Positions 9,951 to 53,232 of a stretch of DNA of 64,000 bases are shown here, one piece after another. The stretch is from Escherichia coli (GTDB lineage Bacteria > Pseudomonadota > Gammaproteobacteria > Enterobacterales > Enterobacteriaceae), in assembly GCF_045037415.1 (NCBI RefSeq), contig NZ_CP173438.1. The stretch is one strand, 5' to 3'. The notes beneath the pieces were generated by a model that searched no databases, was not told where the DNA came from, and worked only from the letters and a program-made list of their open reading frames with translations. Position 1 is the first letter of the stretch. Every line of letters starts with the position of its first letter. The position numbers and the translations under genes were made by a program.

Positions 9951-10568
9951 TCACACCTCCTTCGGGTTTGCCAGATAGCCAGTGGTATCCCCGGTTGGGC
10001 GGCTGTTGGCATTGGGTTTGATCACAATATTCGGTTTGGTAAAGTGAGCTCGCGGCAACGGCGCAACGGCCGCCAGATCGCCATGTTTTTTACGCAGCTC
10101 GTCGATAGGGCCGAAATCCAGCGCCCGTAGCGGGCAGGACTCTACGCAGATCGGTTTTTTTCCCTCCGCAACACGGTCATAACAACCATCGCATTTGGTC
10201 ATATGGCCTTTCGTTTCGTTATATTGCGGTGCGCCATACGGGCAAGCCATATGACAGTAACGGCAGCCAATGCATACATCTTCATCGACCACAACAAAAC
10301 CATCTTCACGTTTATGCATCGCACCGCTCGGGCAGACTTTAGTACAAGCCGGATCTTCGCAGTGGTTACATGAAATCGACAGATAGTAGGCAAACACGTT
10401 CTGGTGCCAGACACCGTTATCTTCCTGCCAGTCGCCACCAGCATATTCATAAATGCGGCGGAAGCTGACTTCTGGCGTCAAATCTTTGTAGTCTTTACAA
10501 GCCAGCTCGCAGGTTTTGCAACCGGTGCAACGGCTGGAATCAATAAAAAATCCATACTGGGTTGTCAT
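9951..10568 (-). CDS. dmsB: DMSO reductase iron-sulfur subunit
   Basis: 205 aa with four ferredoxin-type Cys clusters (CTGCKTCELACK, CNHCEDPACTKVCP, CIGCRYCHMACP, CDGC...C). Confidence 0.9.
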   Translation of the reverse strand: MTTQYGFFIDSSRCTGCKTCELACKDYKDLTPEVSFRRIYEYAGGDWQEDNGVWHQNVFAYYLSISCNHCEDPACTKVCPSGAMHKREDGFVVVDEDVCIGCRYCHMACPYGAPQYNETKGHMTKCDGCYDRVAEGKKPICVESCPLRALDFGPIDELRKKHGDLAAVAPLPRAHFTKPNIVIKPNANSRPTGDTTGYLANPKEV

Positions 10569-10578
10569 CGGTTACTCC

Positions 10579-13023
10579 TTACACCTTTTCAACCTGAACA
10601 AGGTTTGTATGTGACGGATTCCCCTTAGCGAGAGGAGACGGACGTTGAGTGGTCAGTACGTTAATACAACCGCCCTTATCGACACGTTTTGTATCCGGGT
10701 CATACCAGGCACCTTCACCCAGTGCGACCACACCCGGCATCATTCGTGGCGTCACTTTCGCCTCAATATGAACCTCACCACGATCGTTAAAGATCCTGAC
10801 TTTATCGCCGTTGTTGATACCGCGTTTTTGCGCATCAAGCGGGTTGATCCACATTTCCTGACGGCAAGCTGCTTTCAGCACATCAACGTTGCCGTAAGTT
10901 GAGTGAACGCGAGATTTATAGTGGAAACCCGTAAGCTGCAGCGGATACTGTTTGTTCAGCGGATCCTGATAACTTTCAAAACCCGGCGTATAGATCGGCA
11001 GTGGATCGATCACATCACCTTCTGGCAATTCCCAGGTAGCGGCAATGTCAGCCAGCGCCTGCGAATAAATCTCAATTTTCCCCGATGGCGTGGTCAGTGG
11101 ATTTGCCTGCGGATCTTCACGGAAAGCTTTATAAGCAACGTGATGCCCTTGTGGGTCGCGCTTTTTAAAAATCCCCTGCTTACGGAACTCTTCAAACGTT
11201 GGCAGTTCAGGAATCGCTTCCCGCGACTGGGCATACAGATGCCGCATCCACTCTTCCTGGGTACGGCCCTCAGTAAACTGTTGCTCAACGCCAAGACGTT
11301 TTGCCAGTTCGCTGGTCATTTCATAGATGGTCTTACATTCAAAGCGCGGTTTAATCACCTGATCGTTGAAAATCACGTAAGACATATTCCCGCAGGATGC
11401 ATCCAGTGCAAAGTCCATCTGTTCTGAAGCGGTGCAGTCAGGCAGCAGGATGTCAGCATATTTCGCCGATGAGGTCATGTGGCAGTCGATAACCACAATC
11501 AGCTCGCACTTCTTATCATCCTGAAGGATTTCATGGGTACGGTTGATTTCAGAATGCTGGTTAATCAGGCAGTTACCGGCATAGTTCCAGATCATTTTGA
11601 TCGGCACATCCAGCTTATCTTTCCCGCGCACACCATCACGCAGCGCTGTCATTTCCGGGCCACGTTCAATGGCATCGGTCCACATAAACATCGAAATGCT
11701 GGTCTGGATCGGGTTTTCGAGGGTCGGCATACGGACAAACGGTAAGCTGTATGAACCTTCACGCGCGCCGCTGTTGCCTCCGTTAATACCAACGTTACCG
11801 GTCAGAATCGCCAGCATCGAGATAGCACGGGTTGCGATTTCACCGTTAGCGTGACGCTGCGGGCCCCATCCCTGGCTGATAAACGCCGGTTTGGTACTAC
11901 CGATTTCACGAGCCAATTTGATGATTTTGTCTGCCGGAACACCAGTGATTTGCGAGGCCCATTCCGGCGTTTTAGCCACGCCATCTGGCCCTTCACCCAG
12001 AATATAAGCTTTATAGTGACCATTTTTCGGCGCACTGGCTGGCAGTGTTTTCTCGTCGTAGCCAACGCAATATTTATCGAGGAATGCCTGATCCACCAGG
12101 TTTTCGGTGATCATGACATACGCCAGACCGTTAACCAGTGCGGCATCTGTTCCCGGACGAATAGGGATCCACTCATCTTCGCGCCCGGCACCGGTGTCGG
12201 TATAGCGCGGATCGATGATGATCATGCGAGCATTAGATTTCTGGCGCGCCTGTTCAAGATAGTAAGTCACCCCACCGCCACTCATTCGCGTTTCGCCAGG
12301 GTTATTACCAAACAGCACTACCAGTTTACTGTTTTCGATATCCGACGGGCTGTTACCATCTGCCCAGCCGCCGTAGGTATAGTTCAAACCTTCCGCAATT
12401 TGCGCGGAAGAGTAGTCACCGTAATGGTTCAGATAACCGCCGCAGCAGTTCATCAGGCGCGCGACCAGGGTATTTCCCGGCGGCCAGGAGCGGGTCATGG
12501 TGCCACCCAGCGTACCGGTGCCATAGTTCAGATAGATGGATTCGTTGCCGTACTCTTTGATCAGGCGCTGCATATTGGTCGCGATGATGTCGTAGGCTTC
12601 TTCCCAGCTAATGCGCTCGAATTTGCCTTCACCGCGCGCCCCGACTCGTTTCATCGGATATTTCAGGCGGTCGGGATTGTAAACGCGGCGACGCATGGAA
12701 CGACCACGCAGACAGGCGCGCACCTGGTGCAGGCCGTCATAGTTGTCATCGCCAGTATTATCCGTTTCAACATATTTGATTTCACCGTCCACGACGTGCA
12801 TACGTAGCGGGCAGCGACTACCACAGTTAACTGTACAGGCGCTCCAGATAACCTTTTCGTCTGATTTTGTTGGAATGGCGCTATCGACAGCGTGCGCAAT
12901 CCGACTAAAAGGTAATGTTAATGCGCTGCTGGCCATTGCCAGGCCGCCGATCGCTGTCGTTTTTACCAAACCACGGCGACTCACCTCAGCAGCCAATACC
13001 GCATCAGGGATTTTCGTTTTCAT
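10579..13023 (-). CDS. dmsA: DMSO reductase catalytic subunit (molybdopterin), Tat signal peptide
   Basis: 814 aa; N-terminal twin-arginine motif SRRGLVKT; molybdopterin oxidoreductase Cys motifs. Confidence 0.9.
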   Translation of the reverse strand: MKTKIPDAVLAAEVSRRGLVKTTAIGGLAMASSALTLPFSRIAHAVDSAIPTKSDEKVIWSACTVNCGSRCPLRMHVVDGEIKYVETDNTGDDNYDGLHQVRACLRGRSMRRRVYNPDRLKYPMKRVGARGEGKFERISWEEAYDIIATNMQRLIKEYGNESIYLNYGTGTLGGTMTRSWPPGNTLVARLMNCCGGYLNHYGDYSSAQIAEGLNYTYGGWADGNSPSDIENSKLVVLFGNNPGETRMSGGGVTYYLEQARQKSNARMIIIDPRYTDTGAGREDEWIPIRPGTDAALVNGLAYVMITENLVDQAFLDKYCVGYDEKTLPASAPKNGHYKAYILGEGPDGVAKTPEWASQITGVPADKIIKLAREIGSTKPAFISQGWGPQRHANGEIATRAISMLAILTGNVGINGGNSGAREGSYSLPFVRMPTLENPIQTSISMFMWTDAIERGPEMTALRDGVRGKDKLDVPIKMIWNYAGNCLINQHSEINRTHEILQDDKKCELIVVIDCHMTSSAKYADILLPDCTASEQMDFALDASCGNMSYVIFNDQVIKPRFECKTIYEMTSELAKRLGVEQQFTEGRTQEEWMRHLYAQSREAIPELPTFEEFRKQGIFKKRDPQGHHVAYKAFREDPQANPLTTPSGKIEIYSQALADIAATWELPEGDVIDPLPIYTPGFESYQDPLNKQYPLQLTGFHYKSRVHSTYGNVDVLKAACRQEMWINPLDAQKRGINNGDKVRIFNDRGEVHIEAKVTPRMMPGVVALGEGAWYDPDTKRVDKGGCINVLTTQRPSPLAKGNPSHTNLVQVEKV

Positions 13024-13193: not shown

Positions 13194-13207
13194 TTGTTCG
13201 GTATCAA
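13194..13207. promoter_or_regulatory. FNR-type site (TTGtT-N4-ATCAA) upstream of dmsA
   Basis: ttgttcggtatcaa about 170 bp upstream of the dmsA start; dmsABC is a classical FNR-activated operon; the site lies 13 bp outside the prophage attL core. Confidence 0.45.
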
Positions 13208-13219
13208 AGGGAGACAAAA

Positions 13220-13239
13220 AAAGCGCCCGCAGGCGCTTT
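13220..13239. repeat. attL core (20-bp direct repeat aaagcgcccgcaggcgcttt)
   Basis: Exact copy of the sequence at 51877..51896; contains the gcgcccgcaggcgc terminator palindrome. Confidence 0.8.
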
Positions 13240-13322
13240 AACGTTTCTTGCCCCTCCTGATGATTTACTTATTTTTCAACGAATAAGCCAAAACAGGGGG
13301 AACAAATTAACACAAATTATAA

Positions 13323-14315
13323 CTAATCGATGGACAGTTTATGGACACTTTCAGCCAGCGGATTAAAGTTGATCGCGTCCAGTAAAAAGTCCGGCGAAAA
13401 ATGAGCGTACGTCATTGTTTGCTGAATCGTTGCGTGCCCCAGGATTCGTTGCAACGTAACAATATTTCCGCCATTCATCATAAAGTGTGTGGCAAATGTA
13501 TGACGCATGACATGCGTAGCCTGCCCCTTCGGCAAATCCGGTTTCACCTCCTGAAGAATCTCCCGGAACTTCAGATAATCAACCTGATACAATAACCCCG
13601 TTCGACGGGTTTTAATCAGAGGCACGACCGAATCCGCCACAGGAACCGAACGGGATTTTCCGTTTTTGGTGTTAAAGAACGTCACCCGGTTGCCAACGAT
13701 ATGCTCTCCACGTAGTTCCGATGCTTCACTCCATCGGGCACCAGTAGAAAGACACAGAATGGCAACACGACGCACATCACCCTCCAGTCGCTCAAGAAGC
13801 CGTTCAATCTCATCATCAGAAAGAAAGGCCATCTCTGTGTTCTGAACTTTCAGTTTTCGTATACCGCGTACAGGGTTCGCGTTGTGAAAGACCTCAGCTT
13901 CAATCAGCACCGTGAACATGGTAGACAGTACGCATAAGTCACGATTAATACTGGACGGCATTAATCCGGCCTGTAATTTCTCTGACCGATATTCAAGCAT
14001 AAATTTTCGCGTCATCTGACTGGCGCGAGGATCTCCCATTTCACGAACAACCTTCCCTAGCCTAACCCTGTAGCTATCCCCGTAAGCCTGATTACGCCCA
14101 TCAAGCATCCACCACGCATCAAGCAGCTCTGATAATCGCCGCTGATCAGCTGGCTTAGCCTGCCATGGCTTGTCATGAAAGTTCTGTAACACATACTTCT
14201 CAAACTCCTGAGCCTTTGATTTCAGGGCAAAGATTTTTCGAATCCGCTTTCCTTCCGCCCCCTGCGGTCTGACATCGACCTGATAACGTCCGTCTTTGAG
14301 TTGCTTAATCGACAT
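13323..14315 (-). CDS. int: P2-type tyrosine integrase
   Basis: ORF 13323..14330 trimmed to MSIKQLKDGRYQVDVRP...; closely parallels the recalled P2 Int (MAIKKLDDGRYEVDIRP...), with ILCLSTGARW, HVMRHTFATHF and LGHATIQQTMTYAHF catalytic motifs. Confidence 0.9.
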   Translation of the reverse strand: MSIKQLKDGRYQVDVRPQGAEGKRIRKIFALKSKAQEFEKYVLQNFHDKPWQAKPADQRRLSELLDAWWMLDGRNQAYGDSYRVRLGKVVREMGDPRASQMTRKFMLEYRSEKLQAGLMPSSINRDLCVLSTMFTVLIEAEVFHNANPVRGIRKLKVQNTEMAFLSDDEIERLLERLEGDVRRVAILCLSTGARWSEASELRGEHIVGNRVTFFNTKNGKSRSVPVADSVVPLIKTRRTGLLYQVDYLKFREILQEVKPDLPKGQATHVMRHTFATHFMMNGGNIVTLQRILGHATIQQTMTYAHFSPDFLLDAINFNPLAESVHKLSID

Positions 14316-14384
14316 GATTAGCCCCTCCAACGGATAAATTAACTAAACACTCCTTGCGATATGTAATTCGCTCAATGTGTAGAG

Positions 14385-14726: not shown

Positions 14727-14830
14727 TTGAGTATTAACCTCTCGCACAAAGATAACCTTTTGGTTATCTTTACAAGCCAAAACAAACCATCACAAGGCGC
14801 GACAAGCGCACCAACGCAAGAGGATAACAA

Positions 14831-15352
14831 ATGCGGGACTTCATTGCCGATAAAGAGTTATCTGACCACCAACCACTTCAGGAAAGTGACGCACTCAGCG
14901 GATCCATTGATGCCGCCAACGACGACGAGCACGAAGAAAACAAGAAAAAGCGTTCCTACAAAAAAGGAGCGACTTTGCGGCTGGATGGTCCGATCGCCGG
15001 GCTTTGCTCTCTGGAAAAAGGCGCGGCATATATTGGGCTAACAAAATCTGCACTGCGCGTAGCCATTCATCGCGGTCAAATGCCGGGACACAAGACGCGC
15101 ACAAACCCGGAAGATGAAAACTCAGACGGAGTATGGTGGTTTAACGCCAAAGAGTGGGACAAGTTGGCTGATGAGCTACCAGAGCACGAGCCCCCAGAAT
15201 GGCACAACTGGAAAAGTTACTGGACGTATGACCGCCAGAAAAGGAAGTTCTCTCCAGCTAATAAAGAAGACTGCCAGACCATTAACGGTAAGCGAGTTTA
15301 TACAGGCAGAAGCTCAAAACTGGACCAACTCAGAAACAACAGAGGCAACTAA
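14831..15352 (+). CDS. Early HTH protein, possible Cox/excisionase-like regulator; start uncertain
   Basis: Contains helix-turn-helix-like segment AYIGLTKSALRVAIHRGQMPG; first gene divergent from the repressor. Confidence 0.4.
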   Translation: MRDFIADKELSDHQPLQESDALSGSIDAANDDEHEENKKKRSYKKGATLRLDGPIAGLCSLEKGAAYIGLTKSALRVAIHRGQMPGHKTRTNPEDENSDGVWWFNAKEWDKLADELPEHEPPEWHNWKSYWTYDRQKRKFSPANKEDCQTINGKRVYTGRSSKLDQLRNNRGN

Positions 15353-51020: not shown

Positions 51021-51281
51021 ATGTTCCGTTGTCCGCTTTGTGGCGCATCTGCCCGTATCCGCACCAGTCGTCCGGAAAATGATTCAAACACCGTGCGGCA
51101 AAAGTATTACCAGTGTAACAATCTGGAATGCGGCGTATGCTTCTCAACACTGGAAGCTTTCCATAAATTCACATCAAAACACGCCTCCGGCGTTCACTCT
51201 TCAGAAGGTATCCCGTGGCATGATCTGCCAGCTTCACACAGGGGAAACAATCAGATGAGTTTGCCTTTATCTCAGAATTAA
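51021..51281 (+). CDS. ogr: Ogr/Delta-type zinc-finger late transcription activator
   Basis: MFRCPLCGASARIRTSR...YYQCNNLECGVCF has the CxxC...CxxxxC pattern and parallels recalled P2 Ogr. Confidence 0.8.
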   Translation: MFRCPLCGASARIRTSRPENDSNTVRQKYYQCNNLECGVCFSTLEAFHKFTSKHASGVHSSEGIPWHDLPASHRGNNQMSLPLSQN

Positions 51282-51472
51282 CAGGCAGAATTGCCGGAGT
51301 AACAAAAAAGCGATAGATTACGTGCGGGTGCCTTTCGGCTGATGGTCGGAGGGAATACCCGAAGGCCAGATGTGGAAAGGCCCCGAGTCAACTTTAACGT
51401 TAACCCGAGGCCCTAACCATCTACCCTCAGCAAGTGATAGGTTAGCGCCTCCCCGAAAAAGGAGCAAGCGCT

Positions 51473-51613
51473 ATGTCGCAAAAATCGCTTACGGCCATCA
51501 CATTCTGCGTGACGGCAATCCTCATCATCTGGATGCTGCACGGTTCGCTGTGTGAAATACGGATGAGTTTCTGGGGAGCGGAGTTTGCGGCGTTCTTACA
51601 GTGTAAGCAGTAA
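51473..51613 (+). CDS. Hok/Gef-family type I toxin (46 aa), with overlapping mok-like frame 51370..51555
   Basis: MSQKSLTAITFCVTAILIIWMLHGSLCEIRMSFWGAEFAAFLQCKQ: N-terminal TM then the SLCEIR signature and an E-AAF block as in Hok; RBS aggag. Confidence 0.6.
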   Translation: MSQKSLTAITFCVTAILIIWMLHGSLCEIRMSFWGAEFAAFLQCKQ

Positions 51614-51707
51614 GGAAACCGCGACGGGGAAGGCAACTTCCCCGTCAATCGGTTGCCAGGGTAAAGGTCGAAAAGGCACCCTATTTCCAGTTGACGTGAA
51701 CAACAAG

Positions 51708-51739
51708 CCCGCAGCGTAAAAACTGCGGGTTTTCTTTTT
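51708..51739 (+). terminator. Intrinsic terminator downstream of the hok-like gene
   Basis: cccgcag-cgtaaaaa-ctgcggg followed by ttttcttttt. Confidence 0.6.
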
Positions 51740-51772
51740 GGTTCCCTCACTCATGAGGACACCAAAAAACAA

Positions 51773-51803
51773 AGCCCACAGCATAGAAGCTGTGGGCTTT
51801 TTG
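51773..51803 (+). terminator. Second intrinsic terminator
   Basis: agcccacagc-atagaa-gctgtgggct followed by ttttt. Confidence 0.55.
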
Positions 51804-51876
51804 CATTCAAAGATGGACGTTATATGGACACTTAAAAATAAAATCCATTTATTTTCAAATGATTAAACCTCTACTT

Positions 51877-51896
51877 AAAGCGCCCGCAGGCGCTTT
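51877..51896. repeat. attR core (20-bp direct repeat), also the serS terminator
   Basis: Exact copy of 13220..13239; lies about 22 bp downstream of the serS stop. Confidence 0.8.
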
Positions 51897-51918
51897 TTAG
51901 ATTCAGAAAAATTGGGTA

Positions 51919-53232
<1,314 letters not shown>

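Follow-up and report, generated by a model that had tools for sequence, protein, structure and literature searches.

Two repeat dimers flank a P2-like (P88-like) prophage of 38.7 kb inserted in the serS terminator, and homology, geometry, and conservation together indicate that they are very probably the P-arm and P'-arm binding sites of the prophage's own P2-family integrase (Int). At the sequence level, these predicted sites have every feature that defines arm sites of the P2 type. The whole stretch of DNA that was analysed, 64 kb in length, is referred to here as the window, and all coordinates are positions within it.

The prophage lies between dmsA (10579-13023, - strand) and serS (51919-53211, - strand), and its att ends are a perfect 20-bp duplication, AAAGCGCCCGCAGGCGCTTT, at 13220-13239 and 51877-51896. 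When the right end was used as a query, prophage-free E. coli genomes matched from 51877 onward only. The features on which the argument draws are as follows.

13220..13239, no strand: attL core copy, the identical 20-bp core; the rebuilt empty junction is intact in 5,075 genomes.
13240..13329, + strand: core-to-P' spacer, candidate Cox side, assigned by position only through analogy with the Cox region of P2.
13323..14315, - strand: int, P2-family tyrosine integrase of 330 aa, with Pfam Int_N and Phage_integrase matches.
13330..13347, + strand: predicted P'-arm Int arm-type dimer, ATGGACA at 13330-13336 and ATGGACA at 13341-13347, in the last int codons.
14121..14315, - strand: coding region of the Int N-terminal domain (aa 1-65), predicted to be arm-binding, with three beta strands followed by a helix.
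14831..15352, + strand: cox-like gene, 173 aa, partial match to Pfam Phage_Cox (E = 1.9e-7), named cox in identical phage records.
51771..51800, + strand: terminator-like hairpin, AAAGCCCACAGC-N6-GCTGTGGGCTTT with a T run behind it, just upstream of the P arm.
51813..51830, + strand: predicted P-arm Int arm-type dimer, ATGGACG at 51813-51819 and ATGGACA at 51824-51830, in attR.
51834..51866, + strand: A/T-rich, IHF-like site in the interval from P arm to core, aligning with the annotated IHF site of P2.
51877..51896, no strand: attR core copy, AAAGCGCC-CGCA-GGCGCTTT, the palindromic serS terminator; predicted Int core-type site and crossover region.

Read directly from the window, the left dimer stretch (13330-13350) is atggacagtttatggacactt and the right one (51813-51833) is atggacgttatatggacactt, exactly the two strings that the sequence-only reading had quoted. 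That reading described two direct ATGGACA repeats about 11 bp apart at each end. Two direct units do stand at each end, all four on the + strand, and their start-to-start distance is exactly 11 bp at both ends, but the first unit at the right end is ATGGACG, such that ATGGACA accounts for three of the four units and the sequence common to all four is ATGGAC, with the core TGGAC. The left repeats had also been said to overlap the 3' coding end of int, and the left dimer indeed sits in the final int codons, upstream of the stop codon at 13323-13325 in the sense of the gene, where it encodes the S-V-H-K-L-S-I of the Int tail ...E-S-V-H-K-L-S-I-D-stop. The start of the left dimer lies 91 bp inward of the left core, and 46 bp separate the end of the right dimer from the right core.

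Only the dimer, and not the single ATGGACA heptamer, is informative. The lone heptamer is not enriched in the 64-kb window (nine occurrences observed versus eight expected), whereas ATGGAC-N5-ATGGACA, with at most one mismatch, occurs twice in the 64 kb against an expectation of 0.09, both times next to an att site. The broader pattern that characterizes the family, TGGAC-N6-TGGAC, likewise matches in the window at the two att-proximal sites only. A motif-free test, in which any 6-mer dimer shared between the two 180-bp stretches that flank the core was counted, returned ATGGAC as the sole 6-mer dimer common to both arms (same strand, 10-12 bp spacing); a shared 6-mer dimer arose in 0 of 20,000 trials with randomly paired segments of the window, and in 1 of 20,000 when the arms were shuffled. 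Chance is thus excluded as the source of the dimers.

Rejoining the ends of the prophage yields the attP of the circular phage, about 270 bp long, in which the order is terminator, P dimer, IHF element, core, a 90-bp spacer, and the P' dimer on the 3' end of int. The annotated order in the P2 record (NC_001895) is ogr terminator, Int P arm, IHF, attP core, Cox, and Int P' arm, and the window's attP has the same order and the same orientation, including the overlap of the P' arm with the 3' end of int, which is found in P2 as well. The hairpin at 51771-51800 is the positional counterpart of the ogr/F-operon terminator that precedes the P2 P arm. Within the IHF-like site, the element TTTCAAATGATTA at 51853-51865 has one mismatch to the consensus WATCAANNNNTTR, the same mismatch that is present in P2, and the element occupies the same alignment columns in P2, P24E6b, P884B11, and L110, of which P884B11 and L110 match the consensus perfectly. 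In an alignment from the P arm to the core across five different att modules, most of the columns that never vary belong to the IHF element or to one of the two TGG(A/T)C units.

The P2 sequence carries TGTGGTCA/TGTGGACG in its P arm and TGTGGACA twice in its P' arm, each pair 11 bp apart and in one orientation, and the window's P-arm units align column for column with the annotated P2 units, the comparison that the sequence-only reading had suggested making. Its likening of the repeats to the TGTGGACA arm sites of P2 is borne out by the Int family, the layout, the spacing, and the conservation. A published survey (PMC3448106) reports direct repeats with the consensus tgTGGaCa in its P2-type phages and prophages, and gives such repeats on each arm, as in the window and P2, as the rule. 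Compared with this consensus, the window units GATGGACG, TATGGACA, GATGGACA, and TATGGACA match the upper-case TGG and C in four of four cases; position 2, which is lower case and less conserved in the consensus, is A and not g, and the units conform to the consensus all the same. The P arm of P2 itself (TGTGGTCA, TGTGGACG) departs from tgTGGaCa as much as the window units do. Written as (G/T)ATGGAC(A/G), the window unit differs from TGTGGACA of P2 in having A in place of G at consensus position 2, with the TGGAC core the same.

The geometry of the two arms is also shared. An 11-bp step between units recurs in each arm of the window, P2, P24E6b, P884B11, and L071. Measured from the P unit nearest the core to the first P' unit, the two arms lie exactly 163 bp apart in the window, P2, P22H4, P24E6b, and vB_YpM_46. 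P22H4 has the attP sequence of P2, and the set with 163 bp comprises three cores and Cox-side spacers that are unrelated to one another, one in the window, one in P2, and one in the Wphi-type pair P24E6b and vB_YpM_46. The arms are farther apart in P884B11 (265 bp) and L071 (185 bp), and 163 bp is accordingly common, not universal.

The integrase belongs to the P2 Int family. The int open reading frame as listed runs over 13323-14330 with a TTG at 14330; the ATG at 14315 agrees with the homologues and is the likely start. Int is 56% identical to P2 Int over 321 aa, its best match among solved structures is the P2 integrase (PDB 5c6k, E = 1.9e-93), and it is identical to the Int of phages vB_EcoM-569R5 and 705R2 and of one ST131 prophage record. 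Residues 1-60 lie outside the Pfam matches and outside the P2 crystal structure. A model of residues 1-65, based on an alignment of 39 relatives, has a mean pLDDT of 82 and places strands at 3-5, 11-15, and 25-29 and a helix at 32-45, and the nearest folds are AP2/ERF domains and the N-terminal DNA-binding domain of Tn916 Int. By this model, Int has an N-terminal domain of the arm-binding type. In P2, the N-terminal domain of Int recognises the arm sites, as stated in the same survey (PMC3448106).

On the preferred reading, the Int N-terminal domain, with its three beta strands and helix, would bind the TGGAC-core units, and the 11-bp spacing, which places both units of a dimer on one face of the helix, would seat two adjacent Int protomers on each arm. 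These protomers would also bind the inverted repeat of the core, by means of their core-binding and catalytic domains. IHF would bend the P arm, which would allow arm-bound Int to reach the core, and the resulting complex would recombine attP with the serS terminator as attB. After integration, the arms would be split, with P', the Cox side, and int at the 13220 end and P and the IHF site at the 51877 end, and excision would require Int, IHF, and the Cox-like protein. We infer Int binding, its stoichiometry, and the roles of IHF and Cox by homology to P2.

The Cox side bears on an alternative in which the dimers bind another phage protein, for instance the Cox-like directionality factor or the immunity repressor. 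The cox-like product is presumed to be the directionality factor for excision, acting on the attL side. It is atypical, with 173 aa and a partial Phage_Cox match, and binding sites of directionality factors are typically direct repeats about 10-11 bp apart (PMC7498355); both points count in favour of such an assignment. The Cox and Apl sites of P2 and 186, however, lie on one side of the core only, plus the early-promoter switch, whereas the TGGAC dimer flanks the core on both sides and does not occur in the switch region of the window (14741-14860). The motif furthermore follows the Int family across phages whose Cox-side spacers in attP are unrelated, and what the attP and the switch do share is a different motif, AAGCCAAAACA. 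This motif occurs exactly twice in the window, at 13285-13295 in the attP spacer and at 14774-14784 in the repressor/cox switch, and ACAAATTA occurs twice 10 bp apart, at 13302-13309 and 13312-13319, in a spacer of 90 bp that compares with 87 bp in P2. Both motifs are candidate directionality-factor sites and may serve as leads only. We consider it very unlikely that the dimers themselves belong to a protein other than Int.

The distribution of the prophage bears on a second alternative, that the dimers are non-functional relics of arm sites in a fixed, defective prophage. The whole attR was found in 347 of 5,426 complete E. coli genomes and the rebuilt empty serS-dmsA junction in 5,075 of the 5,426, some at 100% identity, which together indicate recent mobility. 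Deletion remnants are present at the serS site as well, one with int fused to dmsA (L011) and one with a premature stop in int (L035). These remnants count in favour of the relic reading. In the window, the int open reading frame is intact, as are the two arms, the IHF site, and the two copies of the core, and the identical Int is carried by the phage records vB_EcoM-569R5 and 705R2. Together with the evidence of recent mobility, this makes it highly improbable that the dimers are relics.

A blastn search of the rebuilt attP against phage records returned three identical records only, matching in the attL half only, and no diverged relatives. No paper in the literature searched names a prophage with both serS and dmsA, and the att module, with its serS-terminator core, ATGGAC-type arms on both sides, and P88-like late genes, is not described in that literature. 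Its location near 0.92 Mb in E. coli HS made phiECO1 of Nilsson et al. a candidate for the same prophage, but it is a 186-type (CI) phage and was rejected on that ground.

Relatives were gathered through the Int protein or through Ogr, which is unbiased with regard to the motif, as the motif was not used. The sequence-only reading held that the idea would fail if the repeats were absent from related phages with the same int; relatives found through Int keep the dimer. In the sense of int, GTCCA-N6-GTCCA (equal to TGGAC in the + sense) is located at the int stop codon or shortly beyond it in loci whose Ints are about 49-100% identical to that of the window. Relatives with Ints 62-100% identical keep the dimer, and more distant ones, down to 39%, keep a dimer of the TGGAC type. 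In L020 and L034 the variant unit GTGGAT is present at the same spacing, as judged by eye. A pattern scan of viral contigs was used to find further Int contexts; it is ascertained by the motif, is therefore circular with respect to conservation, and contains many chance matches.

The P arm, which is non-coding, carries the motif too. Its dimer is unchanged in L144, L231, and L201 despite diverged flanks, and L144, which has the window's module, carries three substitutions between the IHF site and the core with the arm units unchanged. Among relatives with Ogr at least 97% identical, P88-like phages part at a mosaic junction after the terminator at 51705-51732. Past this junction, a dimer of the TGGAC type is accompanied by an IHF site and a terminator-like core in two modules, that of the window and that of the L110 type; in the L110 module these read ATGTGGACAcatAGTGGAAC, then AATCAATCGGTTA, then AAAAAAGGCCGCAGAGCGGCCTTTTT. 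Most of the 80 Ogr loci have no TGGAC-type dimer within 1.5 kb downstream of ogr.

The genes L007-9 encode an Int 88% identical to that of the window in which the N-terminal 45 aa are diverged and the C-terminal tail is different, and the TGGAC dimer is absent from these loci. They were weighed as a case against the arm-site reading and set aside, as the gene is internal to a P4-like satellite with no adjoining att site; for the same reason, an interpretation of L007-9 as a natural swap to 186-type arms was dropped. In E. coli NCTC9082, the gene lies in a P4-like satellite island between gcd and hpt that has its own terminal integrase, and the satellite's Int homologue follows directly after a toprim/primase gene and is itself followed by GGTTACA iterons.

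The position of the P' dimer relative to the stop codon varies among the relatives. The dimer is inside the int coding tail in the window, L010 (Int 70% identical), L012 (62%), L013, L025, L021-23, and P2, and after the stop codon in L014, L017, L032, L045, L068, and L071. Retention of the dimer in either position points to a constraint on the DNA and not on the C-terminal peptide of Int. The weakest alternative, that the dimers are a by-product of coding for a conserved peptide (SVHKLSI) plus a coincidental copy on the right, can appeal to the placement of the left dimer within int codons, to the similar SVH..S tail of P2 (ESVHTVSTVE) and relatives, and to the lack of enrichment of the single heptamer, but it is essentially refuted by the six relatives that keep the dimer past the stop codon, and with a right dimer that lies in non-coding DNA and lines up with the P arm annotated in P2, and dimer statistics that rule out coincidence, we give it almost no credence.

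Across the data, the variant of the unit in the P' arm, with A or with G, goes along with Int residue 20. Among Ints with GTGGAC-type P' arms, residues 19-22 are G-R-(N/D/K)-G in 10 of 10 distinct N-termini, and among those with ATGGAC-type P' arms, about 20 distinct N-termini have A, S, T, or V at residue 20, including a clade only 40% identical to the window Int, in an association that is drawn in part from the motif-ascertained set and is confounded by phylogeny. The change of unit might tentatively be regarded as a co-evolved shift in arm-binding specificity, read by residue 20 in the beta2-beta3 loop, although we think this doubtful. A strict switch, by which ATGGAC arms would occur only with non-Arg20 Ints, was rejected; in P24E6b and vB_YpM_46 the P arm is of the GTGGAC type and the P' arm of the ATGGAC type, and the P arm of L071 starts with an ATGGTC unit. 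Because the Wphi-type Ints (G-A-D-G) occur with a GTGGAC-type P arm, non-Arg Ints evidently tolerate G, and the association would reflect a shift in preference at most, not a strict switch. If the proposal were true, Arg20 would contact the G on the 5' side of TGGAC, and a code of one residue to one base would make the arm specificity of P2-family integrases predictable or re-engineerable.

As the P' arm is written in the C-terminal codons of Int (SVH.(L/V)S), the tail of the protein and the site that the protein binds would be locked together, and the placement of the arm within the int tail could also couple Int binding to int expression.

The analysis fixes the complete attP anatomy for a P2-like prophage found in about 6% of complete E. 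coli genomes, with uses in the annotation of prophage ends, in the design of excision and integration assays, and in the employment of the Int/att pair as an integration tool. The conceptual addition is small. With regard to constraints on the recombination complex, the results are modestly informative in the persistence of the 163-bp inter-arm distance across unrelated cores, in the retention of the dimer whether coding or not, and in the association between Arg20 and G.

Repeats of the arm type have been on record for P2-like phages since the 1990s, with a survey in 2011, and the present case belongs to an ordinary, well-studied system. Relative to P2, the window differs in having Ala20 in Int in place of Arg20, a serS terminator palindrome as its core in place of locI, a Cox-side spacer of unrelated sequence, a Cox-like protein of 173 aa in place of the product of a 276-bp cox CDS (about 91 aa), and a P88-like (Xuanwuvirus-like) late region. 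The attP of Peduovirus of the Wphi/L-413C type (P24E6b, vB_YpM_46) resembles the window in its ATGGAC-type P' arm, TATGGACGCATTATGGACA, its units 11 bp apart, its inter-arm distance of 163 bp, and an Int without Arg20 (G-A-D-G), and differs in having another core and a P arm and IHF half nearly identical to those of P2 (TGTGGTCA/TGTGGACG); one Wphi-type Int apparently serves both GTGGAC and ATGGAC units.

Phage 186 shares the predicted architecture of the window: arm dimers whose units are 11 bp apart flank the core, and IHF and Apl (Cox-like) sites lie in between. In contrast to the window, its unit is YAYCGCCAYTY (CGCCA), it has 3 + 2 sites, its core lies in a tRNA gene, and an open reading frame separates the arm sites from int. 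The 186-type pattern YAYCGCCAYTY, with up to two mismatches, had no match in 13201-13420 or 51701-51900 of the window, in a scan that recovered five of five 186 sites as a control.

The arm sites of lambda are P1, P2, and P'1-3. The unit sequences, site number, and arrangement of the lambda and Tn916 systems are unlike those of the window, and the sequence similarity of the N-terminal domains of lambda Int and Tn916 Int to that of the window Int is undetectable. In the lambda and Tn916 systems, whose integrases are heterobivalent tyrosine recombinases, a small N-terminal domain with a three-stranded sheet reads arms far from the core, and the complex takes its shape from IHF and Xis-type factors, an organization that the window is predicted to share, and the modelled N-terminal domain of the window Int matches that of Tn916 Int.

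The flavour of the arm unit, the TGGAC-core repeat predicted to form the arm sites of the P2-type integrase (Int), was tracked by Int residue 20 in the window and its relatives (residues 19-22 are encoded at window 14255-14266). Arginine occupied this position in all of the Ints seen here that adjoin P' arms of the GTGGAC type, and alanine, serine, threonine or valine in all of those adjoining P' arms of the ATGGAC type, down to 40% Int identity, an association that is confounded by phylogeny and drawn from a set gathered in part with the arm motif itself. Wphi-type phages contain both unit flavours, split between the P and P' arms. A variant unit was found at the int 3' ends of two relative loci (L020 and L034), reading ATCCAC-N5-ATCCAC in the int sense and thus corresponding to GTGGAT units 11 bp apart; the Ints with these variant units carry RRVQR at residues 23-27 instead of KRIR(R/K).

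Two further short sequences lie near the P' arm (13330-13347), one of which, the 11-mer AAGCCAAAACA, has exactly two copies within the window:

13285-13295, AAGCCAAAACA, in the spacer between the core and the P' arm
14774-14784, AAGCCAAAACA, in the repressor/cox switch region
13302-13319, ACAAATTA repeat, two copies 10 bp apart, immediately ahead of the P' arm

Both AAGCCAAAACA and ACAAATTA are candidates for the boxes bound by the Cox-like protein, an atypical one of 173 aa. On the plus strand at window 13342-13369, a sequence resembling a promoter (TGGACA, 16 nt, TAAAGT; consensus match only) was also observed, directed antisense into int, and its -35-like hexamer coincides with the second P' unit.

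The insertion site also bears decayed copies of this prophage in some loci. In one of these (L011, IMGVR_UViG_2778261463_000013), int is 89% identical over aa 1-261 and then continues directly into dmsA sequence, which argues that this copy is a deletion remnant; in the other (L035), int has a premature stop and the P' dimer is nonetheless retained. Two deposited phage records with identical Int, ON470599.1 and PV468777.1, include host dmsA sequence past attL and match the reconstructed attP over its attL half only, and their boundaries are therefore not true prophage ends.

A related Int was found within an island of the P4-like satellite type that is flanked by gcd and hpt (loci L007-L009) and carries a second, internal integrase gene besides its own terminal integrase:

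L169 (E. coli NCTC9082) 10201-11202, internal integrase gene of the P4-like satellite, directly 3' of the toprim/primase gene

The internal integrase shares >90% identity with the window Int over aa 46-321, whereas the two proteins differ in the C-terminal tail and in the N-terminal domain, where the internal integrase has W11. GGTTACA iterons come after the gene.

At the opposite end of the prophage, a hok/sok-like type I toxin-antitoxin cassette (window 51326-51613) is situated after ogr (51021-51281) and ahead of the P arm (51813-51830), and two different hok alleles occupy its position among relatives:

51326-51486, sok-like sequence upstream of the HOK_GEF ORF (Rfam sok, E = 4.5e-8; 42.8 bits, under the gathering score of 59)
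51473-51613, HOK_GEF ORF of 46 aa (Pfam HOK_GEF match, E = 4e-7)

A mosaic junction was located at window 51705-51760 by comparison with P88-like relatives (loci L084-L163) in which Ogr is at least 97% identical and the hok cassette is present. The sequence common to these relatives runs as far as the terminator CTGCGGGTTTTCTTTTTGG, beyond which several distinct modules follow, being other att modules in some relatives and a methylase-like gene block in others.

In the reconstructed attP, the core-proximal TGGAC of the P arm and the first TGGAC of the P' arm are separated by exactly 163 bp (51825 to 13331). Exceptions to this inter-arm distance were the relative locus L071, at 185 bp (163 + 22), and phage P884B11, at 265 bp. 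The same 163 bp, measured TGGAC to TGGAC, recurs in P2, P22H4, P24E6b and vB_YpM_46, even though P2, the window and the Wphi-type phages P24E6b and vB_YpM_46 (taken as one type) have cores and Cox-side spacers unrelated to one another.
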